This document shows, one piece after another, positions 777 to 42,495 of a DNA stretch of 64,000 nucleotides. The notes under the pieces were generated by a model. The model searched no databases and was not told the DNA's origin. It saw nothing but the letters and a program-made list of their open reading frames with translations. Source of the stretch: an uncultured Gammaproteobacteria bacterium (GTDB taxonomy: Bacteria; Patescibacteriota; Patescibacteriia; Magasanikbacterales; GWA2-37-8); NCBI GenBank assembly GCA_964355175.1, contig CAYHBZ010000002.1, positions 28,426 to 92,425 of the forward strand. The letters are read 5' to 3'. A program made the translations under genes and the position numbers. Numbering within the stretch: the first letter of the stretch is position 1; each line of letters opens with the position of its first letter.

Positions 777-786
777 CTTATTTTTT

Positions 787-1230: not shown

Positions 1231-1249
1231 ATCAAAAAAATAGGAGAAT

Positions 1250-1846: not shown

Positions 1847-1847
1847 T

Positions 1848-21266: not shown

Positions 21267-21527
21267 TTGATTGCCTATGCATTTTTTCGGCCATATTGGA
21301 AAAAGGCATGGGGAATAATAATAGCTACCATGCTGGTTGACCTCGACCATTTGTTTGCAAATCCGCTATATGATCCAAATAGATGTAGCATAGGTTTTCA
21401 TCCTTTGCATTCGTACCTTGCCATAGTTATTTATGGCTTGTGTATATTTTTTCCAAAAACTCGTGTTGTTGCTTTGGGTTTGTTGCTCCATATGGCAACA
21501 GACTATTTGGATTGTTTTTGGATATGA
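21267..21527 (+). CDS. small hypothetical membrane protein
   Basis: 86 aa, two hydrophobic segments. Conserved-looking DLDHL and H..TD positions. Confidence 0.35.
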   Translation: MIAYAFFRPYWKKAWGIIIATMLVDLDHLFANPLYDPNRCSIGFHPLHSYLAIVIYGLCIFFPKTRVVALGLLLHMATDYLDCFWI

Positions 21528-23137
21528 CTTTCTAGGTACTCTTTGGTGGCATCGGTTTTTTTGTGAGGGTTGAAAATATTTAGAGGATCAAAAATTTGTT
21601 TTACTTGTTTGAATAGGTCAAAGATCTTGTCTCCATACATCTGTTGCAGATAGGGGCCACGGATCAAGCCATCGTTGTGCTCGGCCGTAATTGAGCCTTT
21701 GTATTCCAAGACCAAATCATACACTTCTTTGGAAAGAGCTGGTATTATTGCCCGCTCTTTTTCTTTGCTCAAATCCATCAAAGGAATAATGTGAAAATTG
21801 GCATCACCCGCATGGCCGGCAATAGTGTAAACTAGCGATTGATATTTAGAAAATATTTGATTTAGACGTGGTAAAAATTCTGGTAAATCATGTGGATGAA
21901 CAATAAAATCATCAATAAAAGGTGCGGTGTGAAGATTTTTTACCTTTTCTCTAAGAAGATTGAAACTTTCATGACGGAAAGCCCAATATTTTTCCGATTC
22001 AGCGGTATTTTTAGTAATATGAGTTTTTAGTCCGTATTGTTTTTTTATGACTACCTCAGCGTCGCTAGCTAGTTTGGATAGTTCTTTTTCGCTGTCGCCG
22101 GTAAACTCAGCGATGATGAGTAATTTTGGCACGCCATGAGTAAGAGTCATGAAAATTTCCGGTAAAAATTTCCATCCTAAAGTAAAAATATTACCTTTCA
22201 TCTTTTTGATCATGGCAGGTAGGAATTTGATAGCCAGTTTGAAAGTATTATCATCAAAAGTTTCTAAAGTTTCGGGATGAAATTGCATTAGAGTATTTAT
22301 CAAGTCGCCCAATGGCCTGAGGTCTTTGAGAAATATTATTAGCATCTTGGAATGAGCGGTGGTTTTTACCAATTTGAATTTTCCTTTGGTGAATAACCCT
22401 AGGGTGCCTTGGGAGCCGACTAATAATTTGGTTAAATCGAAAGTGGTTTTATCCCAAACATTCCAGAGATAATATCCGGCTGAATTTTTGGTGACGGTTG
22501 GTTTGGCTTTTTGAATAGCCGTATAGTTATTATGGATAAGCGCAAACATTTTGCGATAGATTTCACCTTCAAAATTTAGTAGCGCCATTTTTTCTTGCAA
22601 CTCTTGTTCGTTGAGTGGTTTAAAATGATATTCATTACCATCGGATAGCACCGCCCACACTTCTTCTAAATATTTTTCCGTCTTACCGTAGGAAAGAGAT
22701 TTTTCACCACCGGAGTTATTGGCCATGATACCGCCCATAGCACATAGAGATTTGGAAGCGGGAAAAGAGGGCATGATCAGGTTTTTTTCCAAGGTCGCTT
22801 TTTCAAAATCTCGATAATATACACCTGGTTGAGTGATGGCAAAATCGCCGCCAATTTCTATAATGTGGTTAAAATATTTGGTGAAGTCTAAAATGATAGA
22901 ATCATTGATGGCGCCCCCAGTCATATCTGTGCCGGCACTGCGAGCGGTAAGGGATAAAGTCGATCCTGCGCTTTTGTTTTCAGTAACAAAATTTACAATA
23001 GTTTTGAGGTCGTTTTTGTCTTTTGGATACATTATAGCTTCGGGGGTAATGTCAAAAACACTAGCGTCGCGGCTGTATTTTTTTAAGGTTTCATTATCTT
23101 GTAAAATTTCGCCCCTTATTATGTCTTTTGGGAACAT
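21503..23137 (-). CDS. FAD-binding oxidoreductase (GlcD / D-lactate dehydrogenase-like FAD-linked oxidase)
   Basis: FAD_binding_4 domain followed by FAD-oxidase_C domain. 544 aa. Confidence 0.75.
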   Translation of the reverse strand: MFPKDIIRGEILQDNETLKKYSRDASVFDITPEAIMYPKDKNDLKTIVNFVTENKSAGSTLSLTARSAGTDMTGGAINDSIILDFTKYFNHIIEIGGDFAITQPGVYYRDFEKATLEKNLIMPSFPASKSLCAMGGIMANNSGGEKSLSYGKTEKYLEEVWAVLSDGNEYHFKPLNEQELQEKMALLNFEGEIYRKMFALIHNNYTAIQKAKPTVTKNSAGYYLWNVWDKTTFDLTKLLVGSQGTLGLFTKGKFKLVKTTAHSKMLIIFLKDLRPLGDLINTLMQFHPETLETFDDNTFKLAIKFLPAMIKKMKGNIFTLGWKFLPEIFMTLTHGVPKLLIIAEFTGDSEKELSKLASDAEVVIKKQYGLKTHITKNTAESEKYWAFRHESFNLLREKVKNLHTAPFIDDFIVHPHDLPEFLPRLNQIFSKYQSLVYTIAGHAGDANFHIIPLMDLSKEKERAIIPALSKEVYDLVLEYKGSITAEHNDGLIRGPYLQQMYGDKIFDLFKQVKQIFDPLNIFNPHKKTDATKEYLESHIQKQSK

Positions 23138-29240: not shown

Positions 29241-29277
29241 ACAAAAAAATTCCTTAAAATAAAGGAATTTTTTTGTA
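29241..29277. terminator. bidirectional intrinsic terminator between convergent genes
   Basis: A-run, then AATTCCTT-aaaata-AAGGAATT hairpin, then T-run. Confidence 0.5.
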
Positions 29278-29292
29278 TATATTAAGTTGTTT

Positions 29293-29775
29293 TTATTTTC
29301 TTTTTAAATCAATGCCGATTTTAATTGGTATTGATGCAATCTCTTCAAAAACATCATCTTTGTTTTGTCTGGTCAATACTGAATAAGTGTATTCTCCAGG
29401 TTTGGTTAATGGGATTCCGTTGATGGAAATCACAGTTCTGAGCCTCTCTTTTCCTTCTTGAAAAAGGAAGTTGTTTGAAATCTCTTGCAGTATTTTTTCG
29501 TTTGGATCTTTGAAAATGATTTTTACAGGAAATTCAAAATTTTCATTTTTGCTTAAATTTTTCCACAAAATAACTAATTGGGATGAAAAGGGTAATGTTA
29601 TTGGTTTTGTTGGGTCAAATTTTGGATTATTTTTTAGTTTATCGAGTTCTTCCATGTTCAGCCCAAATGTTATTTCTTCTAAAATTTTAAACAAACTTAC
29701 ATTGTTTGTGCCCGCATCAACAGAAGATTCTTGGCATAAAATGGCCCAAATTGATTTAACGTTGGTCTGTTTCAT
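29293..29775 (-). CDS. hypothetical protein, co-transcribed downstream of the HigA-like gene
   Basis: 160-aa ORF whose start overlaps the antitoxin stop by ~20 bp. No recognisable domain. Confidence 0.4.
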   Translation of the reverse strand: MKQTNVKSIWAILCQESSVDAGTNNVSLFKILEEITFGLNMEELDKLKNNPKFDPTKPITLPFSSQLVILWKNLSKNENFEFPVKIIFKDPNEKILQEISNNFLFQEGKERLRTVISINGIPLTKPGEYTYSVLTRQNKDDVFEEIASIPIKIGIDLKRK

Positions 29776-30208
29776 ATGTAAAATAATTTAATGTAAGATA
29801 TCTTTTTGGTTTGTATTGAGGTGCATATACTAGTTCTGCATTGGCAGTATTATTTTGTAGTGAAAATACATAATTGCTTTCAAATATACTTCCTAGATCA
29901 TTATTCGAAAAACCTAGACCATCGACCAGCCTTTTTAACAAATCAATACCAATATTTACATCACCATTTTCTATGTTTGAGATTACTTTTTGAGTTGTGC
30001 CAATTTTTTTTGCCAAATCAATTTGGCTCAAGCCATTTTGTTTTCTTTTTTCGTACACCTCAACCGCCAGTCTTACTGACACCCGTGCTGATTTAGAATG
30101 CAAAGAAAAACTATTATTTTTCCTAGCTTCCGCTATTGGATCAATCATCAATTGTTTTTTATTTGTAACTTTCATAGCAACTTGGATTTCTTTTAAAATT
30201 TTCGACAT
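29756..30208 (-). CDS. XRE-family HTH protein, HigA-like antitoxin
   Basis: HTH_3 signature LSQIDLAKKIGTTQKVISNIENG. Directly downstream of and overlapping a Gp49/HigB-like gene. True start may be an internal Met. Confidence 0.6.
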   Translation of the reverse strand: MSKILKEIQVAMKVTNKKQLMIDPIAEARKNNSFSLHSKSARVSVRLAVEVYEKRKQNGLSQIDLAKKIGTTQKVISNIENGDVNIGIDLLKRLVDGLGFSNNDLGSIFESNYVFSLQNNTANAELVYAPQYKPKRYLTLNYFTYETDQR

Positions 30209-30581
30209 ATACGTCGGTAATTAGATAGTATTTTTCTACTTCCTTTTTCGCTTTGTTAGTATCGTATTTATTAGATTTTTCAAAGGCGTTTAAAAGAACA
30301 ATTTTTTTATTATAGATAATGTACAGGATTCTTATTACTGTATTTTTATCTTTTCCACTTTTTATTTCAATGAAATTATGATTATGAAGTGTGCTTAAAA
30401 ATGATGCCTGTCTACCTGGATTTTCTTTTACAAATTGAATCTTCTGATCAATGGTTGCGAGTATACGATTCTTTCGGTCCGTTGTTTTTGAGGTGTCAAA
30501 TTTATTTGGTAAAAAACATTCAAGGTATTTTTTGACCGGACATATATTTAAGTCACTATCAAGATAATAAGTGACCTCCAT
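30159..30581 (-). CDS. RelE/ParE-superfamily toxin, Gp49/HigB-like
   Basis: C-terminal pattern ...HNHNFIEIKSGKDKNTVIRILYIIYNKKIVLLNAFEKSNKY...KKEVEKY resembles phage Gp49-type (HigB-like) killer proteins, which pair with XRE antitoxins in toxin-first order. Confidence 0.5.
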   Translation of the reverse strand: MEVTYYLDSDLNICPVKKYLECFLPNKFDTSKTTDRKNRILATIDQKIQFVKENPGRQASFLSTLHNHNFIEIKSGKDKNTVIRILYIIYNKKIVLLNAFEKSNKYDTNKAKKEVEKYYLITDVYVENFKRNPSCYESYK

Positions 30582-30653: not shown

Positions 30654-30855
30654 TATTGTCTATGCACATCCGAATTATGATACTGTAGTTCTGATAACGT
30701 CAATCATACACCGCCAAGAATCACATTTCGAAAAATCAGCCGTAGTAGATTTTATTTTTCAGCATGTACTGATAAAAGGTATTCCACGCGTGTTCGGATT
30801 TGTTGGATTGTAAGATGATGCCGAGTATCAAAAGGTTTTTTTGGCGCCAAATTTT

Positions 30856-32079
30856 CTAATGTCCTTGTGCGCCGTCTTCTGTACTGCCGTCAAATACTTT
30901 TGTATTTTTGTCTCCAGCCACCTCAAGGATTCCCCATGCGCCGCGATCTAGTCTCGAAAGGGCGTGGTCTACAAGAATATATTTACCCGGCACCTCCAGT
31001 TTGAAATCAACAATAGCCGCGCCACCCGCTGGCACCAGTGTGGTTTGGACATTCTTAAACAACGCGCCTCCGATGGAGGCTTCCGGATAAACAGTATCAA
31101 AAATTTCGCCGATAACGTGAAACGACGAGATAAAATTAACTCCGCCGTTGCCAATAAATATTCTTACGGATTCACCGACATTCGCTTTCATATTGCCGAC
31201 CAACCCTTTCGTTTTGCCATTGAAAACAACATATTTGGGACGTCCGTCAAGCATTTTTTGAGCGTCGAATATTTGCAAGCCCTTTTTGCCTAAACCTCCG
31301 GTGCTATAAAACTCTCCCTGCATGACGTAAAACTCTCGGTCAACTTTGGGTAACCCCTCTTTCGGTTCCACTAAAATCAAGCCGTACATACCGTGAGCGT
31401 CGTGGGTAGCGACATTGGGGTGAGCGCAGTGATAGACATAGAGGCCAGGATTCAGTGCTTTGAACGTCATGGTTTTTGATTCTCCCGGAGCGATATTCGT
31501 AAGTACTGCCCCGCCACCCGGGCCAGTGACTGCATGGAGGTCAATGTTGTGGCTATGAATGCTGGAAGGATCGTTTTTCAGCATCAACTCAACTGTATCT
31601 CCCTCACGAACGCGGATGAATGGCCCCGGCACCGTGCCGTTGAATGTCCAGTAGTTAAAAGTCACGCCGGGAGCCATTTCGGCGATAACTTCCTTGGTCT
31701 CCAGCTCTACTTTGATATTTTCAGAATGGTTGCGATTTATTGGTGGCGGGATATCATTAGGATCGCGAGCGATGGAAGCAACTCGTTCCATATTCCCAGA
31801 TTTTGCAAAAAAGGTAACAACGTTTTTAAATGGGAGACCAGGTCCGTCAGCGGGTCCGAATGTTTTTAAGAAGAACGGATATTGCAATCGTTCCGGAAAC
31901 GCATACGGCATGAAAAGAAAAAACGATATTCCAACAAGAATGACCGAAAAAACGGCGGCAATTTTCCACGAATGAAACTTGCGGATAATCCAGAAAATAA
32001 AGAGTCCGGCGGCAACAAAAGAAATTGCCAGACCAAAAACTTGAATGAGTACGAACTTGAAGAGTGAGAGACTTTCCAT
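30856..32079 (-). CDS. nirK: copper-containing nitrite reductase, membrane-anchored
   Basis: Two N-terminal TM helices. Type-2/type-1 Cu ligand block HNIDLHAVTGPGGG. Type-1 Cu site YHCAHPNVATHDAHGMYG (Cys...His...Met). Two cupredoxin domains. Confidence 0.8.
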   Translation of the reverse strand: MESLSLFKFVLIQVFGLAISFVAAGLFIFWIIRKFHSWKIAAVFSVILVGISFFLFMPYAFPERLQYPFFLKTFGPADGPGLPFKNVVTFFAKSGNMERVASIARDPNDIPPPINRNHSENIKVELETKEVIAEMAPGVTFNYWTFNGTVPGPFIRVREGDTVELMLKNDPSSIHSHNIDLHAVTGPGGGAVLTNIAPGESKTMTFKALNPGLYVYHCAHPNVATHDAHGMYGLILVEPKEGLPKVDREFYVMQGEFYSTGGLGKKGLQIFDAQKMLDGRPKYVVFNGKTKGLVGNMKANVGESVRIFIGNGGVNFISSFHVIGEIFDTVYPEASIGGALFKNVQTTLVPAGGAAIVDFKLEVPGKYILVDHALSRLDRGAWGILEVAGDKNTKVFDGSTEDGAQGH

Positions 32080-32168
32080 AAATTGATTAATGTTATTTTA
32101 ACAGATTTTCCATCGGAGCACCTAATACCGTGGCGATTTTTGCCACCGTACCCGATTTCATATCCCTA

Positions 32169-32420
32169 TTAATTTAAATCTTTCTTCTTCTCCTCAAATT
32201 CTTTTTTATCAATCTCGCCTTTTGCGTAGCGTTCTTTCAGGATTTCAAGCGGGGACTTGTCTTTTCCGTGCGCGGCATCAGCATGATCATGTCCACACCC
32301 GTGACCATTTCCAGAACCGCCTCTGACCAAGGCGACAATCGCCCAGATTACGAGACCCCAAAAGACGACCATAAATATCCAACCGAATCCGCCCATAGTT
32401 CCAAATCCAAAGTTCATCAT
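32169..32420 (-). CDS. SHOCT-domain small membrane protein
   Basis: N-terminal TM helix, His/Gly-rich linker, C-terminal LEILKERYAKGEIDKKEFEEKKKDL SHOCT motif. Confidence 0.55.
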   Translation of the reverse strand: MMNFGFGTMGGFGWIFMVVFWGLVIWAIVALVRGGSGNGHGCGHDHADAAHGKDKSPLEILKERYAKGEIDKKEFEEKKKDLN

Positions 32421-32446
32421 AAAATTGTTTGATTAGTTAATAATAT

Positions 32447-34036
32447 TTACTCCTCGACCGTAAATGTAAACATCATACCAGCTTCGATGTGTTCGAGAAT
32501 ATGACAATGAGCCATCCACACTCCCGGATTGGACATATCGATCAAAACATCCAAATATTCACCTGCTGGTACGTTGACGGTGTCCTTCCACACCAGATTA
32601 GTCTCTGGCGCGCCATTTTTATTCAGCACCAAGAAACGCTGGCCATGAAAATGTATGGGGTGTTGCATAGGGTGTGCGGAGTTGCCGTCGTTGGTAATCC
32701 GTATCTTCATCTTTTCCCCAACCTTAAACTTCCAATCAATGTCCATATTTGCATTACCGGAGTCCTGATCGATTATCTTCCACGTCACCATGTCTGTATT
32801 TGACATCGCGTTCATCCCAGCGTTGTCCGAATCATCCCATTCAATACCGCCTTTCGGCACAGTACCCATCATTTGGCCTCCGCCCATGCGAGACGGCATC
32901 CCATGAGTACCGTTACCCATCATACCGGTGTTGCCACCCAGCATATCAAGCGAGAGTTTTATGCGCTTGTCAGTCTCTTTGGCAAAAAAGGGACGAAAAG
33001 GATCAATGATCTTAATGGCCTCGACGTTATCGCGGAGAGTCTTAAATATATTCGCGTTCGAGGAGACAAGCGACTCATCTGAAACGATAATTTTTCCAAG
33101 ACGTGTTGTTGTATCGGGAGTCTTGTTTTGGATTTCGTATTCACCCGGTGCGTCAAAGCGAGTTTCAACTACGGCGCGCTCGGAAGGAGTGATGAGTACC
33201 GCATCTTTCCATTCCTCATGTTCATATGCGCCGTTATCTCCGCCGACAAGCTTCAACTTCGCTCCCTTGATGGCAAGATTAAACGGCCGGACACTCGCGC
33301 TGTTGGTGAAGTAGAAACGAATCACCTCGCCACTCTTAACCGAGAGAGTGTAGTCGGTCTCGCCATTTACGAGCATGACATTTCCAAATCGTCCCATAAG
33401 AGCGCGATCCGATCCGTCTTTGTAGAATGGCGCGATTTTCCCGTTCTCAATCAAAATGTCATCGAGGAAAACGGCAACTTCGCGGTCAACCGTGTTCCAA
33501 TAGGTCGGGCTTTCTGAAGTTACTAAGAAATTTCCATAAAGGCCGAGCTCAATGGCATAGTCATCGCGCATATGCGGGTGATACCAATACACACCGGTGT
33601 CAGGGAATGTGAGTGTGTAGGTAAACGAGTCGCCGGGCTGAACCACCTTTTGCGTCACATCAGGAACGCCGTCAAAGGCATTGGCCATGCGCACACCATG
33701 CGAATGAATAGTATTCTCCACGTCCGTATCGTTTTTAAAATTAACGGTCACCGTGGCTCCTTGTGGGATTTTCAAAGTCGGTCCCGGGATAGAGCCATTG
33801 TAGGCGAGCATTCGTACTTGGTTCCCATTGATATTCTTTTTTACAAAACTCGCTGTGAGGTCAAACGTGTCTCCATCTTTGAGTTCTATTACCTGTGTCT
33901 TCTCTGCAGATGGCAATCCCTTGATACTTGTTGAAAATGTCTGACCAGAAACAATGCCGTTATTTGATACAAAAATACCTCCGACAATTGCTACTGATAT
34001 CGCGAGTATACCAATGAGTAATGGTTTATTTTTCAT
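32447..34036 (-). CDS. three-domain multicopper oxidase (CueO/CopA-like, with Met-rich segment)
   Basis: Signal peptide. Cu-ligand motifs HSHG, WYHPH, HPIHFHG and HCHILEHIEAGMM. Met/Gly-rich insert GMMGNGTHGMPSRMGGGQMMG typical of Cu(I)-handling MCOs. Confidence 0.85.
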   Translation of the reverse strand: MKNKPLLIGILAISVAIVGGIFVSNNGIVSGQTFSTSIKGLPSAEKTQVIELKDGDTFDLTASFVKKNINGNQVRMLAYNGSIPGPTLKIPQGATVTVNFKNDTDVENTIHSHGVRMANAFDGVPDVTQKVVQPGDSFTYTLTFPDTGVYWYHPHMRDDYAIELGLYGNFLVTSESPTYWNTVDREVAVFLDDILIENGKIAPFYKDGSDRALMGRFGNVMLVNGETDYTLSVKSGEVIRFYFTNSASVRPFNLAIKGAKLKLVGGDNGAYEHEEWKDAVLITPSERAVVETRFDAPGEYEIQNKTPDTTTRLGKIIVSDESLVSSNANIFKTLRDNVEAIKIIDPFRPFFAKETDKRIKLSLDMLGGNTGMMGNGTHGMPSRMGGGQMMGTVPKGGIEWDDSDNAGMNAMSNTDMVTWKIIDQDSGNANMDIDWKFKVGEKMKIRITNDGNSAHPMQHPIHFHGQRFLVLNKNGAPETNLVWKDTVNVPAGEYLDVLIDMSNPGVWMAHCHILEHIEAGMMFTFTVEE

Positions 34037-34039
34037 AGG

Positions 34040-34423
34040 TTATTTTGCATTATTGATAATGGTTTGAATGATTTGGTCGATTTCTTTTGGTCTTTCGCCC
34101 AAATCGGCTTGCGGAAAAAACTGCGGCAGAATAATCGGGCGCATGCCGGAAATAACCGTCTGCCCATCTTTCGTATAGATGTTTATCTTGCATGGCAGGC
34201 AAAGACCGATCTTGATATCAATATTCAAAAACTCATTGGCAAACTTTGCGTTGCAAAACTCCACAATCTTAAACGGCTCTCGCTTGAAACCTTTCTCGGC
34301 CAATGTTGCTTCCACATCATGAGTATACAAAACCCGCATACCGGCTTTGGCAATTTCGTCTTGCACGCTCAAAACCGCCTCGTCAAAAACTTTTGTTGTG
34401 GTTGTAGTGTAATCGAATTCCAT
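34040..34423 (-). CDS. DUF302-domain protein
   Basis: Length and sequence pattern match the DUF302 family, which is frequently encoded in metal-resistance loci. Confidence 0.5.
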   Translation of the reverse strand: MEFDYTTTTTKVFDEAVLSVQDEIAKAGMRVLYTHDVEATLAEKGFKREPFKIVEFCNAKFANEFLNIDIKIGLCLPCKINIYTKDGQTVISGMRPIILPQFFPQADLGERPKEIDQIIQTIINNAK

Positions 34424-34428
34424 AAATG

Positions 34429-34701
34429 TTACTTATTTGATAAATTATAGATTCTGATTAATTCTTTGACAGCCTTCTCGTCCTCGCCTTTACTCTGCAT
34501 TTGATGTTTTACATGGGAACGGAGGTGGTTTTCCAAAAGAAAGCTGTCAAGACTTTTGAGCGACCTTTGAATAGAGAGTGATTGCTCCAGCAGGGTAGGG
34601 CAATACTCCTCTTTCTCAATAGCCTTGATAAGTCCGTCAAATTGACCTTTGAGGATCTTCGCTCTATGAAGAGCGCGGTTTTTTAATTTTTGGTCAACCA
34701 T
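34429..34701 (-). CDS. csoR: CsoR/RcnR-family metal-sensing transcriptional repressor
   Basis: 90 aa, all-helical. Conserved Cys (YCPT) and His/Cys positions (HLRSHVKH) of the CsoR W-X-Y-Z fingerprint. Heads the Cu operon. Confidence 0.65.
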   Translation of the reverse strand: MVDQKLKNRALHRAKILKGQFDGLIKAIEKEEYCPTLLEQSLSIQRSLKSLDSFLLENHLRSHVKHQMQSKGEDEKAVKELIRIYNLSNK

Positions 34702-35259
34702 AGTTTTTGGGTAATTAATAATAGATGTCCACCTACATATATAGTATATACCCCTATATCCTATAAATCAATTACTTTACCCTTGTTGCCATAAAGTTTT
34801 TGACAAAGATATATTTATGTATTATAATTATCAACGCTAAAGACTCAGATATTTCTATGCAAAAGTGGCTATTCAAATCTATTAAACTTCTCACATTAGT
34901 CATTTTTATTTTTGGCACTTTTTCGCTTTGTATTGCGCATACAACTACTGAACCTGTGGAACAGACTATCGCTATATCTGCGCTGGATACCAATGATAAT
35001 CACTGCTGTGGGGGTAAAAAATTGTCGGAAAAACGAACTCTTCTTAATAAAACAAGAATCAGTCAATTACATAATGAAAAGACAGAAAAGTTACCATTAG
35101 CTATATTACCACAACGCCTTATTCCTTCCGTACGGTTGAGTGAATGGCCTGGACCACAGAGAGAGCAATACCACTCTCTTAAAACACAACAACAATTATC
35201 AATGGTCATGCGCTCGTAAATTTTGTTTAAAACAATAATCTTTTGGTTATTGTTTTTTT

Positions 35260-36198
35260 TTGTTTTTAAAAATAATTTTTATTATGAAAAAATTTATATT
35301 TATTATCGCCGCTCTTATGCTCGTTGGGGCAGGATGCGCCTCGCAAAAAACGCCCGCTAACGAAGCCGTCCCTACAGCTGATCAAGGAAGCGCTGTAAAT
35401 AGTGGTGCTAACTCAGACAAAGAACATGCTAAGGCCGGACATTTATCTACAGTAGCAGGCAGTCGTATTGAATTAGACAATCAAAATAGTTTTAAACCAG
35501 GCGAAGTAACATTTAGTTTTAAGCTGTACGGATTAGACGGTCACGAATTTGGGCCAAACGATTTAAAAGTTGAACACGAAAAGAAAATGCATTTCTTAAT
35601 GGTGCGGGATGATATGACAGGTTTCCAGCACACTCATCCAGAATATGCTAACGGAAAGTGGTCGGTAAAAACTGCCTCAATAGAACAAGGTGAGTACCAG
35701 CTCTATGTTGATATTGCCCCTGAGGAAGAGAAGGCTATTGTGCTACGCGTTCCCGTAACTATCGGTGGACAAACGGTAACTAAAAATTTTCCAACCCCAA
35801 ATACTGATCTTTCAGCTCAAGATAGTGCTTACCGCGCTGTTCTAACAACAGATGGTATCTTAAAAACCAACGAACACAACACGCTTACTTTCTCCGTAAC
35901 CAGCAATGGCCAACCAATAAAAAATATTGATCCTTACTTGGGTGCCTATGGCCATGTGGTTTTACTTCGTCATAATGATCCAGACGATTTTTTTCACGTT
36001 CATCCTATTACCGAAAACAAACCAGTTGACGGTAAAGTTCAGTTTGAAGCTCAGTTCCCGGTTAAGGGCCGTTATACGCTGTATGCTCAGTTTAATATTG
36101 GCGGCTCAGTAAAGACATTTCCAATCACTCTTGATGTTAACGAACAAGGTCAGGACAGTGATACTTCTCATGGACATGACACCAAGGCAAAAGAATAA
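35260..36198 (+). CDS. lipoprotein with two tandem ~120-aa domains each carrying an HxHP motif (candidate periplasmic metal-binding protein)
   Basis: Lipobox LVGAGCAS. Internal repeat, domain 1 ...MHFLMVRDDMTGFQHTHPEYANGKW..., domain 2 ...GHVVLLRHNDPDDFFHVHPITENKP.... Confidence 0.45.
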   Translation: MFLKIIFIMKKFIFIIAALMLVGAGCASQKTPANEAVPTADQGSAVNSGANSDKEHAKAGHLSTVAGSRIELDNQNSFKPGEVTFSFKLYGLDGHEFGPNDLKVEHEKKMHFLMVRDDMTGFQHTHPEYANGKWSVKTASIEQGEYQLYVDIAPEEEKAIVLRVPVTIGGQTVTKNFPTPNTDLSAQDSAYRAVLTTDGILKTNEHNTLTFSVTSNGQPIKNIDPYLGAYGHVVLLRHNDPDDFFHVHPITENKPVDGKVQFEAQFPVKGRYTLYAQFNIGGSVKTFPITLDVNEQGQDSDTSHGHDTKAKE

Positions 36199-36206
36199 CT
36201 AACAAT

Positions 36207-37997
36207 ATGAAACAATTTTTAACACTGAAAGTGTTTGGATTAGGCGCTCTGGTTATAGTTGTTTTGGGGGTAGCCGGTAGCCGTCTTTTTGCCGCACAAT
36301 CAAATAGTGAGGAGGAAAATATGCAGAAAAAATCGAAGGTTGTTGCTTTAAACGTGCCCGTAGAAACCGCAGCAGATAGTAACGCAGCAACCGTTGGAGC
36401 TTCGACCATATCCTGGCCAGGTGAAATACTTTCTACTGCTGATGTACAAATCTATCCGGCTCGAGAAGGACAAATTGCTGAATGGCGAGTACGATTAGGT
36501 AGTCCTGTTAGACAAGGTCAGGTGATTGGCAGATTAACTGCTGGTCCCGTAAGTACTGAACTGATAGCTCTTCTTGCTGATCGTCAGAAAGCTATTACTC
36601 AAGCTCGGGCTAACGTCGAAGCGACCGCGAATTATATTCAAACTTCTAAACAGAATCTTCAAGAGCTGAAGTTATCACTTGATCTAGCACGCGATGCGGC
36701 GGTAAAAGCCGCTGAGAATAATCTAGAAACATTAGTAGGTTCTGCTCCAGAGATAACATCAAGTACGACGTCTGCTTCGTCAACCCAGGGAATCTTGGCA
36801 AATAAACGGGATAAGGTGCGTGCACAAGCTCGTAAAATTCAAAACTATTATATTAATGCGATGAGTTTGAATTTTATAACTCTTAAGACCGATCAGTTAT
36901 ACGGAACATACAGTCTTAGAAAATACATCGGCATTCTAGATGCCAATACTATGAGTAACTTTGACAATACCGTTATAGCGCTGGGAAATGATCTCAAAAA
37001 TTCGGCTACCGTTCCTGATGCGTCTGTCTTTAATTTCCTTAAAGCAGCGCAAAGATTACTCCTGTCTACTCTAGCAACTGATGACGGATACGGCATTGCC
37101 GCTAGTAAGTTAGATGGCTTAAGAAACGATATCGGTACTGACCAAACTGAATTTCTTGACGTGCTTAATGAGTACAAAGAAGCTAAGGCATCTGTTGAGA
37201 ATGCCAAAGGTGTAAAAAATATTACTGTAGCTGATGCTGATGCTGTGTATGCTGAGAAAAAATCAGAACTTAATCAAAAAATTGCTGAGCTGGATCGAGA
37301 ACTCGCCTTAGCTCAGTCAGAGGTCGGCGCTGCCGAATCAGCCTACGGTTCCATCGCTTCTGGTATAGCGGGACAAAACATTGTGGCACCTAAAAGCGGT
37401 GTTGTATCAGTTGTCTTTAAGAATGTAGGTGACCAAGTATCACCGGATAGTCCATTAGCTGGTATTAGTAGTGCCCAAGCAACAGGCAGGTTTATTCGTT
37501 TCCGAATCCCGAGTGATATGCGCACGCCTATTACTGGTCAAGAAATTAAAGTCGAACGCCCTGGCTTCCCACTTGAAGGGAAAAAAGCAAAAATTGTAGG
37601 TGTTGGCTTGGCGCTAGATAGTAATGGAGCCTATGTAGCTGACGCTGAATTTTTGGAAAAGATCGATTGGCCAGTACATGCCTCAGTACGCGTCATCTCA
37701 GAAATGACTACACGATCCGTACTTGTTCCTTTTGCAGCGGTTTGGTGGAATGAAAAAGGTGAAGCGAATGTATGGTTGGTAATGGAAAATAATGTTATTC
37801 GTCCACGTGTGGTACATGTAGGAAGAGCTATTGGTGATCGTATAGAAATTGAAGAAGGGTTAGATGCGGGAGAGCGGTATGTCGCTAAAGCTATTCCAAC
37901 CTTAAAAACGGGACAGTCGATCACTGAACTTACGACGGTTAAAAAAGAAACCACTGAACCAGCTGGAGATGGTCATGGACATTCACATGGCGAATAA
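36207..37997 (+). CDS. efflux RND periplasmic adaptor (membrane fusion protein, CusB/HlyD-like) with long coiled-coil insert and His-rich C-terminus
   Basis: N-terminal TM. Lipoyl/beta-barrel segments (AREGQIAEWRVRLGSPVRQGQVIGRL...). About 250-aa alpha-helical hairpin. C-terminal GDGHGHSHGE. Confidence 0.65.
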   Translation: MKQFLTLKVFGLGALVIVVLGVAGSRLFAAQSNSEEENMQKKSKVVALNVPVETAADSNAATVGASTISWPGEILSTADVQIYPAREGQIAEWRVRLGSPVRQGQVIGRLTAGPVSTELIALLADRQKAITQARANVEATANYIQTSKQNLQELKLSLDLARDAAVKAAENNLETLVGSAPEITSSTTSASSTQGILANKRDKVRAQARKIQNYYINAMSLNFITLKTDQLYGTYSLRKYIGILDANTMSNFDNTVIALGNDLKNSATVPDASVFNFLKAAQRLLLSTLATDDGYGIAASKLDGLRNDIGTDQTEFLDVLNEYKEAKASVENAKGVKNITVADADAVYAEKKSELNQKIAELDRELALAQSEVGAAESAYGSIASGIAGQNIVAPKSGVVSVVFKNVGDQVSPDSPLAGISSAQATGRFIRFRIPSDMRTPITGQEIKVERPGFPLEGKKAKIVGVGLALDSNGAYVADAEFLEKIDWPVHASVRVISEMTTRSVLVPFAAVWWNEKGEANVWLVMENNVIRPRVVHVGRAIGDRIEIEEGLDAGERYVAKAIPTLKTGQSITELTTVKKETTEPAGDGHGHSHGE

Positions 37998-38006
37998 TCC
38001 ATTATT

Positions 38007-41000
38007 ATGCTCAATAAAATTATTCTATGGGCGATTAATCATCGCTGGTTTACCGTCATTCTTTCAGTCGGTGTTGCTTTAGTTGGAACCTGGAGTTTGT
38101 CCACGATGCGAGTAGATGTGCTTCCCGATGTGAATAAACCAACAGTAGCTATATTTGCTGAAGGGGAAGGGCTTGCACCGGAAGAGATTGAACGTCTTAT
38201 CTTAATCCCTATTGAGGCAGCTGTAGCGGGTGCGCCTGGTGTAGAACGCGTGCGCGGCACCGCTTCCTTTGGTTTGTCTATCGTGCAGGTTGAATTTGAG
38301 TGGGGATCAGATGTGTATCGTAATCGACAAATTATCCAGGAACGCCTAGCACAGCTTAACTTACCAAGCGATGTAAAGCCAGTGCTTGGGCCTGTAGCCT
38401 CAGTAATGGGTGAGATCATGTGGGCTGGTTTATCAGCCAATAACCCAAAGATTGATGGAATGCAACTCCGCACACTTGCTGATTGGACTATTCGACCTGC
38501 GCTCCTTCGCGTTCCTGGTGTTTCCGATGTCATTATATTAGGCGGTGATGTACGGGAGTGGCAGATTAATCTCAATGCCGAGCGAATGCGGCGCTATAAT
38601 ATTACGATTGATCAGGTGGTAGAGCACGTGGCGGGTGCGCTTAAAAATCGAGGTGGTGGTATTTTGGTGCAAGGACAGCAGGAATATCCTATTCGGATTT
38701 TAGTTGCACCAAGTAACATCAATGAAATTAAAGAAATTGGTATTGGTAAACTTGATGAAAAACCGGTACGGTTGGCAGATATTGCCCAAGTGGTTGAGGG
38801 CGCAAGCCCTGTTCGTGGTAGTGCGACTATAGATGGCAAGCCCGGAGTTATCCTGCGTATTGTTAAGCAGCCAGAGGCTGAAACATTGACCGTTACTAAA
38901 GCTGTAGATGAGGCCTTAATCACCTTGCAAAAAACCTTGCCGGAAGGAACTGAACTAAAAAATGATCTTTTCCGACAGGAATGGTTTATACATGCTGGCT
39001 TGAGTAACGTAATGGAAGCGTTGCGTGATGGCACAATTCTTGTAATTATCATTCTGGCTCTCTTCTTGATGAACGTGCGTACGACCGTGATTACCTTGAC
39101 GGCCATTCCGATGAGTATCTTGGTTACCGCAATAGTCTTCAAATCGTTTGGATTTTCGGTGAACGTCATGACGCTTGGTGGCATTGCGGTAGCAATTGGC
39201 GAACTGGTTGACGACGCAATTGTGGATGTGGAAAATGTGTTCCACCGTATGAAAGATTGGATAAAGAATGGTCGGAAAGAACCATTCAAGGATGTGGTTT
39301 TTCGCGCTTCGAGTGAAGTGCGAAATTCAATTGTCTATGCTACTATTTTGGTTGCGATTGTTTTCCTTCCTGTCTTTTTCATACCTGGAGTAGAAGGACG
39401 ACTGCTTGCTCCACTTGGACTTGCATACCTTATCTCACTGGTTGCTTCACTGGCCGTGTCCTTAACCTTAACGCCCGCTCTCTGTACTATTCTCCTCGGA
39501 AAAACTACAGCAGGAAAAGACGAAGATACTCGTTTGGTGCAGTGGATTAAACGGCGTATGACCCCGGGCATTCGATGGAGTATTGCCAATCCAAAGCTTA
39601 TGATGGCGGGTGTCGCAGTGAGCTTAATCATCGCGGGTGGCCTCTACTCCTTTGCTGGCAAAGAGGGTATTCCGCCGTTTAATGAGGGCGCTGTTACTAT
39701 CGGGGTCGTCATGCCGGTTGGCACTGATCTTGAAACCTCTAATGCTTTTGCTTCAAAAGTTGAAGATGCTATTGGCAAAATTTCTGGAGTACAACGTGTG
39801 AGCCACTCAACCGGCCGTGCTGGTGCCGATCCGCACGATAGCGGAGCTAATACCAGTGAAATCCAAGTTGCCTTTAAGCCAGGGCTTGAAAAAGAGCGAA
39901 AGCGTCTCTTTGCCGATATCCAAAAAGTACTTGATAGCTATACCGATGCTGATTTTGGCTTAGGGCAACCAATTACTCACAAACTTGAAGAATTACTCTC
40001 TGGCGTTCGTGCCCCCATAGTGGTTAAAGTCTTTGGAGATGATTTGGTTTCTTTACGGCTTGCTGCAGCACAAGTGAGAGATGAGTTAGCGAAACAGGCA
40101 GGAGTTACCAATGCTCAAGTACAACGTGAAGTAATGGTTCCTGAATTCCGTATTTATCCCAATCGCAACCGATTAGCACAACTTGGTCTTTCAAGTGGTG
40201 AAACAGCGGAAGTGCTGGAAAAAGGTTTGCTTGGTGCGCAAGTTGGTCAAGTGCAACTTGGATCATCCCGTGTTGATGTGGTAGCTCGTTTTGATATTAC
40301 TTCACGCGGTAATGCTTCTGCCCTCCGCGATTTGGCATTGCCTGTAGAAGGCATTGAGTCGCTTGGCGAAGCAGCTGACATACGTTTGGAAGCTGGTCGT
40401 AATCGTTTAAGTCATGAAGGCGGGAGACGTGTATTAGTGGTAAGCGCCAATTACCAAGGAAAAGATATTGTGGGAGCGGTCGAAAATGCAAAACAATCAC
40501 TCGAATCACAACAACTGCCTTCCGATGTTTCGCTCTCATATGAAGGAACTTACAAAAGCCAAAAAGAAAACAGCCAACGCCTCATCATCCTATTTATTAT
40601 TGGGCTTGGCCTTATCTTCGGCGTGCTCTACCACGCCTTCCGCTCAACACCGATTATCTTACAGATCATGATCAATATTCCTACGGCATTTATTGGCGGT
40701 ATGATTGGAGTATGGCTTACGGGTGGTGTGGTAAGTTTGGCACATATGATCGGTTTTATCTCGTTAGCAGGTATTGTTTCACGCAACGGTATTATGCTTA
40801 TAACACACTGTTTACACTTGGTGAAGCAAGAAAAACTACCGTTTGTGCCAGATACTATTATTAAAGGGACACTTGATCGTGTAGTGCCCGTACTCATGAC
40901 TGCGCTCACTGCGCTCTTAGCACTCATTCCTTTCTTGCTAGCTGGTGAAGACCCCGGTAAAGAGATGTTGCATCCATTAGCAGTAGTTATTTTTGGTGGA

Positions 41001-41096
41001 TTAACTTCTTCAACAATCATTTCACTGTTCTTGACCCCATCGTTGTTCTATCGGTTTGGTAAGAATGTAGTTAGTGCTGATTCTGAAGTAATATAA
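38007..41096 (+). CDS. cusA: heavy-metal efflux RND transporter, CusA/CzcA family
   Basis: 1029 aa, 12 TM. HME-RND signature AIGELVDDAIVDVENV in TM4. Two large periplasmic loops. Follows the adaptor with a 9-bp gap. Confidence 0.9.
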   Translation: MLNKIILWAINHRWFTVILSVGVALVGTWSLSTMRVDVLPDVNKPTVAIFAEGEGLAPEEIERLILIPIEAAVAGAPGVERVRGTASFGLSIVQVEFEWGSDVYRNRQIIQERLAQLNLPSDVKPVLGPVASVMGEIMWAGLSANNPKIDGMQLRTLADWTIRPALLRVPGVSDVIILGGDVREWQINLNAERMRRYNITIDQVVEHVAGALKNRGGGILVQGQQEYPIRILVAPSNINEIKEIGIGKLDEKPVRLADIAQVVEGASPVRGSATIDGKPGVILRIVKQPEAETLTVTKAVDEALITLQKTLPEGTELKNDLFRQEWFIHAGLSNVMEALRDGTILVIIILALFLMNVRTTVITLTAIPMSILVTAIVFKSFGFSVNVMTLGGIAVAIGELVDDAIVDVENVFHRMKDWIKNGRKEPFKDVVFRASSEVRNSIVYATILVAIVFLPVFFIPGVEGRLLAPLGLAYLISLVASLAVSLTLTPALCTILLGKTTAGKDEDTRLVQWIKRRMTPGIRWSIANPKLMMAGVAVSLIIAGGLYSFAGKEGIPPFNEGAVTIGVVMPVGTDLETSNAFASKVEDAIGKISGVQRVSHSTGRAGADPHDSGANTSEIQVAFKPGLEKERKRLFADIQKVLDSYTDADFGLGQPITHKLEELLSGVRAPIVVKVFGDDLVSLRLAAAQVRDELAKQAGVTNAQVQREVMVPEFRIYPNRNRLAQLGLSSGETAEVLEKGLLGAQVGQVQLGSSRVDVVARFDITSRGNASALRDLALPVEGIESLGEAADIRLEAGRNRLSHEGGRRVLVVSANYQGKDIVGAVENAKQSLESQQLPSDVSLSYEGTYKSQKENSQRLIILFIIGLGLIFGVLYHAFRSTPIILQIMINIPTAFIGGMIGVWLTGGVVSLAHMIGFISLAGIVSRNGIMLITHCLHLVKQEKLPFVPDTIIKGTLDRVVPVLMTALTALLALIPFLLAGEDPGKEMLHPLAVVIFGGLTSSTIISLFLTPSLFYRFGKNVVSADSEVI

Positions 41097-41256
41097 TTAA
41101 GTATGAATAGTCCCCGGTGGAATAACCCCGGGGACTTTTCTATGCAAATTGACAAATGCCTTAAAATAAGGCAATCTCGGTGCGAACTTGGTCTACGACA
41201 CACCGCATTAAAATTACCTTGAAAATTGAAGGTAATTTTGTTATATTACTGCTATT

Positions 41257-42288
41257 ATGTCTATAATAAATAAAATTGAGATGCGGGAGGTACTGTCAGT
41301 TCTAGTCCTTTATGGACTTAATTTAGATAATTTAAAAATTGTCAGGGATACCAATGGTTTTGTAAACAAAATATATTTTATTACTATCGGGAAAACAAAA
41401 TTGGTTTTGCGTAAATCCAATCCAACCACTTCTTTGGCACATATTAAATTGGAAGTGAAACTGTTGGAGTACCTAGCTTCCCATCATTTTGCCGCCACCC
41501 CTCAAATCGTTCGCAACTTAAATGGAGAAGATATAACTGTGTATAACAAAGTTTTTTTTACGGTGCAAACTTTTATGCCCGGTAGCATCAAGGCTAGTTG
41601 GAATAATCTAAAAGGTTTTACTCCTAAGAGAATTGAGAATTTTTTTAAAACAATTGCGTCTTTTGGCATAGCGGTGGAAAAATTTTCTCGTTTAAATAGT
41701 GTGGCCAATAAGCCCTTATGGTATTTTGTAAAAAATGGGCCAACCTTACTTCGTAAATTATACAAAAGTTTGCCGGAATCGACCGCTAAAAAATTAATTT
41801 TAAAAAATTATCAAGATATTTTAAGATTTATTGCGCAGACACGTAAAGAATTCATACAAACAGATTATGACTCCTTGCCAAAACAATTAGTGCATTTTGA
41901 TTTTCACCCCGGTAATGTGAATTATGTTAATAATAAAGTAGTAGCTCTATTTGATTTTGATTGGGCGCGCCATGACTCTCGGTTTAGTGATTTGGCTTCT
42001 GGAATTGGGCAATCGTGCTATTATTATGGCGGTAAACTAGGAGGTCAATTTAGAAAAGATAGGATAAAGCTTGCTTTAAGTAGTTATCAAAAGGCATATG
42101 GTGAAAGCCCTTTTAGCGTTAAAAAAGAGAATGAGTATATCAAAGTGGCATTAAGAGGATATGCGATCTATATATTTTTTTGGGCTGTAGAGCTGTATGA
42201 AGAAAATCCAACTGGAGAAAATTTCTTGGTGTTGGATCATTTTCTTAAAATATTGCTCTTGAATGATTATGATCGATTGTTTAACTAG
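41257..42288 (+). CDS. APH/choline-kinase-family phosphotransferase
   Basis: Brenner motif HFDFHPGNV and DFDWA (DFG-like). About 340 aa. Confidence 0.65.
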   Translation: MSIINKIEMREVLSVLVLYGLNLDNLKIVRDTNGFVNKIYFITIGKTKLVLRKSNPTTSLAHIKLEVKLLEYLASHHFAATPQIVRNLNGEDITVYNKVFFTVQTFMPGSIKASWNNLKGFTPKRIENFFKTIASFGIAVEKFSRLNSVANKPLWYFVKNGPTLLRKLYKSLPESTAKKLILKNYQDILRFIAQTRKEFIQTDYDSLPKQLVHFDFHPGNVNYVNNKVVALFDFDWARHDSRFSDLASGIGQSCYYYGGKLGGQFRKDRIKLALSSYQKAYGESPFSVKKENEYIKVALRGYAIYIFFWAVELYEENPTGENFLVLDHFLKILLLNDYDRLFN

Positions 42289-42395: not shown

Positions 42396-42495
42396 GGAGA
42401 GGTGTCTGAGTGGTTGAAAGTGCCGCTCTCGAAAAGCGGTAGGCCAGCGATGGTCTCGTGGGTTCGACTCCCACCCTCTCCGCCAAGCCAAAAAC
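42396..42495 (+). tRNA. tRNA-Ser (anticodon CGA), CCA encoded
   Basis: GGAGAGG acceptor. Anticodon loop CTCGAAA. Long variable arm. T-loop GTTCGACTC. 3' CCA present. Confidence 0.85.

Follow-up and report, generated by a model that had tools for sequence, protein, structure and literature searches.

How does a genome of the candidate phyla radiation (CPR) type come to hold, side by side, a CsoR-family regulator, a multicopper oxidase (MCO), a copper nitrite reductase (NirK) and a resistance-nodulation-division (RND) pump? The question arises from a 64-kb stretch of contig CAYHBZ010000002.1 (the window), in which these genes occupy positions 30856-41096 (the block); the flanks served as the comparison. 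An earlier note had taken the block for a single, horizontally acquired island. Alignment of the window by BLASTN against loci fetched from other assemblies (numbered with L below) delimits instead three discrete homology units, at 30776-32142, 32174-34775 and 34799-41177, and the notion of one island is refuted by these units together with the host-like composition of the RND operon at third codon positions and its synteny with a congener. We propose that the block serves the homeostasis of a metal, most probably copper, and was put together from three modules, each inherited on its own within the CPR, a reading that we regard as probable, if well short of certain.

Three homology units in one block

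The first module holds nirK, flanked by about 80 nt on its downstream side and 63 nt on its upstream side. It is 82.6% identical in nucleotides, and 91% in amino acids, to its counterpart in a Yanofskybacteria genome (GCA_001795855.1), where nirK stands in a different context, followed by DsrE and SHOCT genes with no MCO gene nearby. The second module, a 2.6-kb csoR-DUF302-MCO-SHOCT cassette with the csoR promoter, whose homology stops at about 32174-32176, recurs at 82-92% nucleotide identity in ten other species-representative CPR genomes (L008-L016 and L018) labelled Paceibacteria, "Patescibacteria group" and Peribacteria. Not one of the ten has a flanking gene in common with the window, and across carriers the GC content of the cassette is 44-49%, against 39-50% in the host flanks. 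The encoded MCO is 85-94% identical in amino acids in ten other species, and the DUF302 protein accompanies the cassette at 77-94% identity. In the sole pair with a comparable housekeeping gene, the window and L013, the MCO is 87% identical and RmuC only 55%. At a clustering threshold of 90% identity, NirK falls into a cluster of 117 members and CsoR into one of 80, Yanofskybacteria being among the members; EF-G is a singleton. The identity of the cassette in unrelated contexts, the cluster sizes, the comparison of MCO with RmuC and the third-position composition described below all support the view that modules 1 and 2 were recently passed on laterally between CPR lineages. Of the note's claim of horizontal acquisition, the part that concerns these two modules stands, and acquisition of the whole block at once does not.

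The third module, which carries the RND operon, has a different history. Its homology with L095 starts at 34799 and that with the congener L094 stops at 41177. In L094 the RND operon is 83% identical in nucleotides and occupies the same chromosomal site, with a right flank that matches the window through tRNA-Ser, two hypothetical genes and the genes for EamA, a YgjP-like protein, a peptidyl-prolyl isomerase and RmuC (71-99% amino acid identity); the contig ends on the nirK/cassette side, and the comparison covers the RND operon and right flank. This syntenic flank argues that module 3 is resident at its site.

What does composition contribute to this picture? The GC content of the block is 44.0%, compared with 38.2% in the rest of the window, so that the distinctness described in the note is real and its magnitude (about 48-52%) was overestimated. 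Values per kilobase reach 0.45-0.47 at most, dip to 0.38-0.42 at 34-37 kb in the middle of the block, and attain 0.41-0.45 also in housekeeping stretches outside it, at 3-8 kb and 10-16 kb. Tetranucleotide profiles likewise deviate from the flanks on both sides of the block (31.2-35 kb and 36.2-41.2 kb, with z between +3.1 and +4.3) and not in its middle, where z is only 0.27 (33.75-36.25 kb). GC content at third codon positions (GC3) separates the genes more sharply. Against a background of 45 window genes (mean 0.343, standard deviation 0.053, maximum 0.435), the five minus-strand genes have values of 0.45-0.52 (z from +2.0 to +3.3), each above the background maximum, and the four plus-strand genes have ordinary values of 0.30-0.38 (z from -0.8 to +0.7). 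The raised GC content of the RND operon arises at codon positions 1 and 2. The region of an 1893-residue LVIVD-repeat protein (55176-60857, plus strand) is also a tetranucleotide outlier, on a par with the block (z up to 3.3), and composition alone is therefore a weak island signal in this window.

An assembly chimera was considered and rejected, both junctions of the block recurring in an independent Logan assembly, SRR24858484 (L002 and L088). Together with the placement of the block's proteins on contigs of 464 kb (ENA) and 954 kb (NCBI), this replication indicates that the block is not an artefact.

A donor outside the CPR, which the earlier note had envisaged, does not appear among the nearest homologues. 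The named top matches of NirK are all from CPR organisms (Doudna-, Zambryski-, Kaiser-, Yonath- and Yanofskybacteria and Paceibacterota), at 63-92% identity over the full length including the membrane anchor, and those of the RND permease are all from Patescibacteria or Magasanikbacteria, at 63-94% identity (best 120 of at least 8000 candidates). Hainich groundwater is where the nearest relatives of NirK were sampled. A scan for the MCO with one genome per species returned mostly metagenome-assembled genomes (MAGs) of Patescibacteria, and nearly all matches with reliable-looking labels are CPR; a minority are labelled "Gammaproteobacteria", archaeal or Desulfobulbaceae, and some of these titles look like placeholders. 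The note had also called NirK and an RND pump unusual cargo for such organisms. The numbers just given speak otherwise for the pump, and for NirK the literature does. The enzyme is widespread in Parcubacteria, where it makes up a separate clade and retains every copper ligand, its physiological role being described as unclear (Danczak et al. 2017, PMC5581439), and lateral transfer followed by evolution within the CPR has been hypothesised for it (PMC7304191). Our literature search found nothing specific on copper loci or RND pumps in the CPR, or on DUF302 in connection with copper. NirK and the RND pump are accordingly better viewed as part of a CPR accessory gene pool than as exotic imports, which corrects an attractive but wrong story, and the new elements are confined to the circulating cassette with its operator and to a lineage-specific efflux variant. 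Routes of gene transfer among CPR organisms are poorly understood, and a cassette shared at such identity by MAGs labelled as different candidate phyla offers a clean, datable case of recent exchange.

Do the edges of the block retain traces of mobility? No integrase or transposase and no flanking direct repeats were found in the window, in agreement with the note; a search for direct or inverted repeats and for att-like copies of the tRNA-Ser end gave only short pairs of low identity. In the plasmid and phage collections neither the cassette nor the block had a match, apart from a SHOCT fragment of 60 nt on plasmids of Manganitrophus; the phages gave none. The tRNA-Ser gene lies 1.3 kb past the right edge.

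Three observations on these borders and on the copies elsewhere may be added. An APH-family phosphotransferase gene (41257-42288, plus strand, GC 0.336) stands between the RND terminator and tRNA-Ser(CGA) at 42396-42485; it is absent from L094, where a 114-residue open reading frame (ORF) replaces it, and the spot is a small variable site next to a tRNA. Two similar hairpins, AAATTCCTTAAAATAAAGGAAT at 29247-29268 and AAATGCCTTAAAATAAGGCAAT at 41154-41175 (22 nt, 86% identity), bracket the stretch that begins with the toxin-antitoxin genes and runs up to the RND terminator. The two are best taken as independent terminators; a relic boundary is less likely. In L095 (1-1067 and 13179-23078) the RND copy stands beside genes for TraC-like and TraG P-loop proteins of type IV secretion and a CopA-DUF305-YHS-cupredoxin cluster, an arrangement suggestive of a CPR element of conjugative type with metal genes as cargo.

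Regulator, enzymes and pump

The genes named in the note are all present in the block, which has nine in all, with family assignments borne out by Pfam and NCBIfam profiles. Its descriptive details (the Met-rich MCO, the HxHP lipoprotein, the His-rich tail of the adaptor and the anchored NirK) were verified on the translations, and the family assignments agree with its view of a functionally coherent, metal-handling block.

At the head of the minus-strand genes, the regulator belongs to the CsoR family with confidence (PF02583, 57.6 bits against a cutoff of 22.8; best match in the PDB, Mycobacterium tuberculosis CsoR, E = 6.8e-9). Its ligand set, x-C34-H59-H63, is not the canonical C-H-C expected of the copper sensor that the note had named. 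His63 replaces C65 of the M. tuberculosis protein, and the resulting C-H-H set is identical to that of Thermus thermophilus CsoR (3AAI). Upstream of the csoR orthologues (60-99% amino acid identity, eleven loci), the sole alignable element is a 10-4-10 palindrome with the consensus ATAGGGTATA-GGGG-TATACCCTAT, preceded by TTGACA and running into the -10 element. The copy in the window has three mismatches to it, lies between the -35 and -10 elements and occurs once in 64 kb, with none expected by chance. Its 12-nt core, TATRGGGGTATA, occurs 12 times in the 2.19 Mb of fetched loci, 11 of these 35-80 nt upstream of csoR, and its half-site words TATACCC and GGGTATA are those of published CsoR boxes (PMC5057107). 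A second operator was looked for at the RND and nirK promoters, and none was found. We infer that the csoR promoter is autoregulated and derepressed by metal. The pair of operator and repressor opens regulation in uncultured CPR bacteria to direct test.

The cso operon of M. tuberculosis, copZA of Bacillus subtilis and the copZ-csoR-copA operon of T. thermophilus provide the closest parallels. As in the window, a small four-helix repressor of the CsoR family is encoded there in the operon that it controls, and the operator is palindromic, G/C-centred, built of TATACCC and GGGTATA words and overlapping with the promoter. The window differs from them in its cargo, which comprises an MCO, a DUF302 protein, a SHOCT protein and probably NirK rather than CopA and CopZ, and in the order of its half-sites, which are arranged 10-4-10 as GGGTATA...TATACCC and not as TATACCC-n-GGGTATA. 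Thermus CsoR has, in addition, an extra N-terminal His that is absent from the regulator described here.

The MCO carries the expected copper motifs HSHG111, WYHPH151, HPIHFHG459 and HCHILEHIEAGM510 (the fourth in HCHILEHIEAGM), together with a Met/Gly-rich insert (10 Met and 13 Gly in residues 356-425) and an N-terminal hydrophobic signal or anchor with no twin-arginine motif. It scores well below the cutoffs of the subfamilies of this type (156.7 against 525 bits for CueO, NF008205; 142.8 against 479 for CopA, TIGR01480), and by these profiles it is a distant relative, not an orthologue, of the CueO/CopA cuprous oxidases. The SHOCT protein combines a His-rich linker (GHGCGHDHADAAHG) with its C-terminal SHOCT domain.

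A conserved 73-residue, two-helix membrane protein (MKLSK...IW.Q.AT.HHM.LEK) that is absent from the cassette of the window recurs in CPR copper loci (L009, 11623-11844; L004, 9754-9975; L008, 9360-9581). It has no family assignment; further 73-residue ORFs are present in L095 and L176.

NirK scores above the cutoff of its family model (TIGR02376, 329.9 against 296.3 bits) and retains the type 1 copper ligands H177, C218, H226 and M231, the type 2 ligands H182, H217 and H372, and the catalytic residues D180 and H321. Its core is about 60% identical to the nitrite reductase of Ralstonia pickettii (RpNiR), making it AniA/RpNiR-like, and an N-terminal anchor of two helices is formed by hydrophobic segments at residues 3-35 and 35-62. 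On these sequence grounds it is a bona fide member of the known clade of CPR NirK proteins. The genes of the cassette are separated by gaps of 5, 3 and 26 nt, and the 89-nt gap between the SHOCT gene and nirK holds a weak hairpin only, with no T-tract; given the small gaps and the lack of a terminator, read-through from the csoR promoter into nirK is plausible. The same order recurs in L009 (csoR-DUF302-MCO, a 73-residue ORF, SHOCT and nirK, the last 42 nt after the SHOCT gene), where NirK is only 48% identical to that of the window, which suggests that the linkage between cassette and nirK is selected. Copper genes adjoin CPR nirK genes also in L004, L007/L101, L100, L122 and L134, and the link is recurrent without being general. 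The idea that NirK is an intrinsic part of copper homeostasis in the CPR was dropped, since nirK loci from metagenomes mostly lack copper genes.

How does this arrangement compare with those already known? The Parcubacterial enzymes belong to the same family, keep their type 1 as well as their type 2 ligands and occur in hosts without the rest of the denitrification pathway (PMC5581439). That study argued against recent transfer into the CPR; the NirK of the window, at 91% identity across candidate phyla and with atypical GC3, indicates recent transfer within the CPR. The position of nirK directly behind a CsoR-MCO cassette is a feature of the window that is not described there (PMC5581439).

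Nitrosomonas europaea, like the host of the window no classical denitrifier, also has an MCO gene and nirK in the same direction. In its ncgABC-nirK cluster, the MCO gene upstream of nirK encodes a two-domain enzyme, genes for cytochromes c lie between, and NsrR is the regulator; the window has a three-domain, Met-rich MCO, no cytochromes and a regulator of the CsoR type.

No cupredoxin or cytochrome that could donate electrons to NirK is encoded in the block. The window contains, 7.7 kb from nirK, a gene for a FAD-linked oxidase (21503-23137, minus strand; FAD_binding_4 and FAD-oxidase_C domains, D-lactate/glycolate dehydrogenase-like), homologues of which (49-53% amino acid identity) lie directly downstream of nirK and on the same strand in eight metagenome loci (L120, L122, L123, L124, L126, L127, L130 and L131). 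This oxidase may be an electron-donor partner of CPR NirK.

Is the RND system a copper pump of the CusA type, as the note had it? The permease is a full-length RND protein with 12 transmembrane helices, ACR_tran covering residues 8-1016. Of the solved structures, ZneA (384 bits) and CusA (362) match it best, followed at a distance by MdtB (243) and AcrB (169). The CusA/CzcA model TIGR00914 gives 660.2 bits, below its cutoff of 701.45, and the multidrug model 506 bits. In a HMMER alignment the Met triad of CusA, M573/M623/M672, falls on G566/T616/E661, and neither this replacement nor the score supports the label CusA-type. A cluster of other potential ligands is conserved instead, with D608, H610 and H658 invariant and E618, E661 and E662 present in 115-120 of 121 family members. 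Transmembrane helix 4 (TM4) reads AIGELVDDAIVDVEN, conserved across the 121 members. The reference signatures of heavy-metal efflux (HME) pumps in this helix are AIG-x3-DAA-x3-IEN in CusA and DFG-x3-DGA-x3-VEN in CzcA; that of the window resembles CusA at AIG but carries a DD pair of the AcrB kind and two additional acidic residues. Nor does a tripartite assembly find support, as no outer-membrane factor (OMF) was found among the scanned ORFs of the window or in the gene tables of six related loci (L089, L094, L095, L176, L177 and L178). Our reading from the sequence is that of an HME-related, OMF-less metal exporter, with a His/carboxylate chemistry that would be more suited to Cu(II), Zn(II) or Ni(II) than to Cu(I).

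The adaptor narrowly exceeds the cutoff of its family model (TIGR01730, 96.4 against 94.9 bits), is membrane-anchored and ends in the tail GDGHGHSHGE. Its lipoyl half-motifs, at residues 88-110 and 392-411, are separated by about 280 residues, and adaptors in the PDB match residues 485-594 only, approximately. An AlphaFold2 (AF2) model from the single sequence is unusable (pLDDT 38), displaying only a mostly helical stretch at residues 117-387; it is conceivable that this long helical insert forms an exit duct through the wall. The lipoprotein, by comparison, is modelled well (AF2, pLDDT 85.6) as two Ig-like beta-sandwiches with one cluster of His residues per domain, H99/H104/H117/H119 and H225/H239/H241, which are invariant in 48 homologues and kept in at least 131 of 144 distant representatives. 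Its matches in the PDB are generic tandem Ig/FnIII folds only, and it may be a partner that binds metal for the pump outside the cytoplasm. The first gene of the operon, orf120, has no Pfam or NCBIfam match; equivalents of 119-121 residues precede the lipoprotein gene in L089, L094 and L095, with a conserved Cys25, a CC motif and a C-terminal LSxVxRS. The RND module has copper genes (those for CopA, YHS, DUF305, DUF411, CsoR and cupredoxin proteins) beside it also in L089, L095 and L176. An operon of RND pump, adaptor and tandem-His lipoprotein would represent a hitherto undescribed form of metal efflux for a cell that has no outer membrane.

The domain pair of the lipoprotein defines a large family without functional annotation (proteins P0392-P0534 belong to it): with a limit of E <= 1e-3 a profile search returned 5149 cluster representatives, and with E <= 1e-10 it returned 3144, and no Pfam model scores above its cutoff. 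It is fused to the C-terminus of an HMA-P1B ATPase (P0503) and to that of surface proteins with Fn3, FG-GAP and CBM96 domains. A CPR genome from Hainich groundwater, on a 1,301,131-bp contig (L176), encodes two RND paralogues, P0153 and P0156, one of them with a 640-residue adaptor, no lipoprotein and a CsoR-YHS-CopA operon about 3 kb away.

Escherichia coli combines related parts in a different way, in the periplasmic cuprous oxidase CueO and the HME-RND system CusCFBA for Cu(I) and Ag(I). Here too a Met-rich, three-domain MCO goes with an RND pump, which is accompanied by an adaptor and by a small metal-binding protein outside the cytoplasm, and CusA is among the closest solved relatives of our pump. 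The MCO of the window, in contrast, has no twin-arginine signal, control is by CsoR and not by CueR or CusRS, no CusC-type OMF was found, and the Met triad has given way to G/T/E and a cluster of His, Asp and Glu residues. The adaptor is 596 residues long with its insert of about 280, and the Ig-like tandem-His lipoprotein is unrelated to CusF. Compared with ZneCAB and CzcCBA, the HME-RND systems of Cupriavidus for divalent cations, ZneA is the best solved match, and the carboxylate and His residues align with the region of its proximal site; the window departs from these systems in its TM4 motif, which is not DFG-DGA-VEN, in the TIGR00914 score, in lacking an OMF and in an envelope that is probably monoderm-like.

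On this basis we propose the following model, in which the logic of the locus would be a hybrid of a Gram-positive or Thermus CsoR operon and the CueO/Cus system of E. coli. CsoR with its C-H-H ligands would bind the palindrome within its own promoter and let go upon binding metal. Derepression would yield the exported Met-rich MCO, which could oxidise Cu(I) on the outer side of the membrane, giving Cu(II) as the less toxic form, and along with it the DUF302 protein and the His-rich SHOCT membrane protein. Transcription from the csoR promoter would probably read through into nirK, so that this copper enzyme is made when copper is available and may reduce nitrite to NO outside the cell. Module 3, the older resident, would be expressed from its own consensus promoter, which lacks a CsoR operator, and its two-part, OMF-less RND system (pump, long adaptor, lipoprotein and Cys-motif protein) could clear metal cations from the space between membrane and wall. 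If this is true, production of NirK in the CPR would be tied to copper availability, which provides a hypothesis for the timing of a puzzling enzyme.

Weighing the readings

Could the block nevertheless have arrived in one piece, or never have moved at all? A single recent island from a non-CPR donor, bringing copper resistance, NirK and a tripartite CusCBA-like pump, would account for the raised GC content and tetranucleotide deviation over most of the block, for its coherent gene content and for the tRNA-Ser to its right. We find it hardly credible, given that the named homologues of NirK and the RND pump are all CPR, and those of the MCO nearly all, at 63-94% identity, that the best solved relative of the pump outside the CPR, ZneA, is far more distant, and that the block falls into three homology units, among which the RND operon, host-like in its GC3, keeps its chromosomal position in a congener; the lack of an integrase, direct repeats and an OMF gene, and a match in plasmid and phage collections limited to the SHOCT fragment, point the same way. 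Vertical descent of the whole block, its composition reflecting the amino acid and codon preferences of genes for membrane proteins and metalloproteins, is very improbable too, although it fits the RND operon, with its GC content raised at codon positions 1 and 2 and its position kept in the congener. It is further favoured by the published tree, in which CPR NirK has its own clade (PMC5581439), and by the comparison with L007, where NirK (65%) is about as diverged as EF-G (63%). It fails to explain why all 45 other genes lie below the five on the minus strand in GC3, how a near-identical cassette came to stand in unrelated neighbourhoods with flanks of 39-50% GC under the labels of different candidate phyla, and why the MCO and NirK are so much closer to their relatives than are RmuC in the same genome pair and EF-G, which has no relative at 90% or above.

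The function of the locus admits two further explanations. The RND operon might export a non-metal (lipids, envelope components or host-derived toxic organics), with the copper genes as incidental neighbours, which we think unlikely. The AcrB-type DD pair in TM4 (AIGELVDDAIV..VEN, and not the CusA/CzcA motif), the TIGR00914 score, a promoter without the CsoR operator and the occurrence of the tandem-His domain on large surface proteins would suit such a role. It is opposed by bit scores that rank ZneA and CusA well above MdtB and AcrB, and TIGR00914 above the multidrug model, by an invariant or nearly invariant D/H/E cluster exactly at the metal-binding place of ZneA and CusA, by the His-rich tail of the adaptor and the conserved His clusters of the lipoprotein, by copper genes flanking the module in four loci including the window, and by the fusion of the lipoprotein domain to a P1B ATPase. 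Alternatively, the locus might supply copper to NirK and the MCO and mature them, with the lipoprotein, the SHOCT protein and the DUF302 protein as chaperones and a pump that delivers metal. Both cuproenzymes are extracytoplasmic, the order of cassette and nirK recurs in L009 with a very different NirK, several CPR nirK genes adjoin genes for CopA, DUF411 or YHS proteins, and the lipoprotein has weak YtkA-like matches, YtkA/CtaK being a lipoprotein of CuA assembly in Bacillus. The cassette and the RND module, though, are mostly found without nirK, most CPR nirK loci have no neighbouring copper genes, and a CsoR-repressed, Met-rich MCO is a classical signature of a stress response; a supply function is thus quite unlikely.

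The assembly of a copper homeostasis locus from three modules, which we prefer, has its own difficulties. Module 3 is found in L095 (RND permease 94% identical in amino acids) in an unrelated context beside TraC/TraG-like genes, and it would follow that this module is mobile as well, on a longer timescale; the tetranucleotide profile of the RND region also deviates, with z of about 4. Three of the seven RND-module loci, the window being counted among the seven, have no copper genes nearby (L094, L177 and L178). Of 80 nirK loci from metagenomes only a handful have copper genes close by, about four of the CPR-type loci in that scan showing the linkage, and the adjacency of nirK and cassette may reflect a hotspot for accessory genes. 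The taxon labels of MAGs may err and contigs may be mis-binned. The Magasanikbacteria-like label of the host is a taxonomic hint, not a phylogenetic placement, drawn from the 90%-identity cluster of the window's UvrD, which includes one Candidatus Magasanikbacteria MAG protein, and from the named relatives of the RND and lipoprotein genes, which share that label. A passage in PMC5057107, citing Sakamoto 2010, describes a C-H-H CsoR as responding to several metals with low selectivity, and copper is therefore not proven as the signal.

A bolder proposal, which we put forward tentatively and with more doubt than conviction, is that the CPR possess a lineage-specific, OMF-less efflux machine composed of the RND permease, an adaptor of about 600 residues, the tandem-His lipoprotein and the Cys-motif protein, and that a CsoR-MCO cassette passing between phyla has placed NirK under copper control.

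Feature coordinates and neighbouring genes

The features of the block are collected in Table 1. The hairpin behind the RND permease gene was skipped by a consensus terminator scan, probably owing to its 9-nt loop.

Table 1. Positions and supporting evidence for genes and signals of the block (coordinates of the window).
Feature	Position	Strand	Length	Evidence or remark
Module 1, nirK unit	30776-32142	-		Homology borders by BLASTN
nirK	30856-32079	-	407 aa	TIGR02376
SHOCT small membrane protein	32169-32420	-		Pfam SHOCT, E = 2.9e-10; last gene of module 2
Three-domain MCO	32447-34036	-		Pfam Cu-oxidase_3, Cu-oxidase, Cu-oxidase_2
DUF302 protein	34040-34423	-		Pfam DUF302, E = 5.9e-18; without hydrophobic segment
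CsoR/RcnR-family regulator gene	34429-34701	-		PF02583, E = 1.8e-15
Candidate CsoR operator ATAGGATATAGGGGTATATACTAT	34741-34764	-		Palindrome match
csoR promoter	-35 TTGATT 34771-34766; -10 TATACT 34748-34743	-		
Sigma-70 promoter TTGACA-17-TATAAT	34800-34828	+		12 of 12 consensus matches; left border of module 3
orf120	34857-35219	+		N-terminal hydrophobic segment, CC(S/G)G motif; first gene of module 3
Lipoprotein	35284-36198	+		Lipobox LVGAGC; HTHP/HVHP motifs
RND adaptor (membrane fusion protein, MFP)	36207-37997	+	596 aa	TIGR01730
RND permease	38007-41096	+		ACR_tran, 782 bits
Terminator-like hairpin GTCCCCGG...CCGGGGAC, then TTTT	41112-41140	+		Read from the sequence

The surroundings of the block are typical of CPR/Patescibacteria, with a class A penicillin-binding protein, giant surface proteins bearing lamin-tail domains and LVIVD repeats, and few metabolic genes. 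Adjoining its left edge is an AT-rich trio of minus-strand genes (29293-30581, GC 0.28-0.31) for a DUF6941 protein, an Xre-type helix-turn-helix (HTH) protein and a Gp49/HigB-like toxin, preceded by a perfect TTGACA-17-TATAAT promoter at 30653-30625. The trio is probably a toxin-antitoxin module; a PADLOC scan of the small flanking genes returned generic HTH matches only. Near the start of the window, an operon for riboflavin synthesis (201-2936, plus strand) encodes riboflavin synthase, lumazine synthase, GTP cyclohydrolase II and RibD, an unexpected capacity for a CPR genome.

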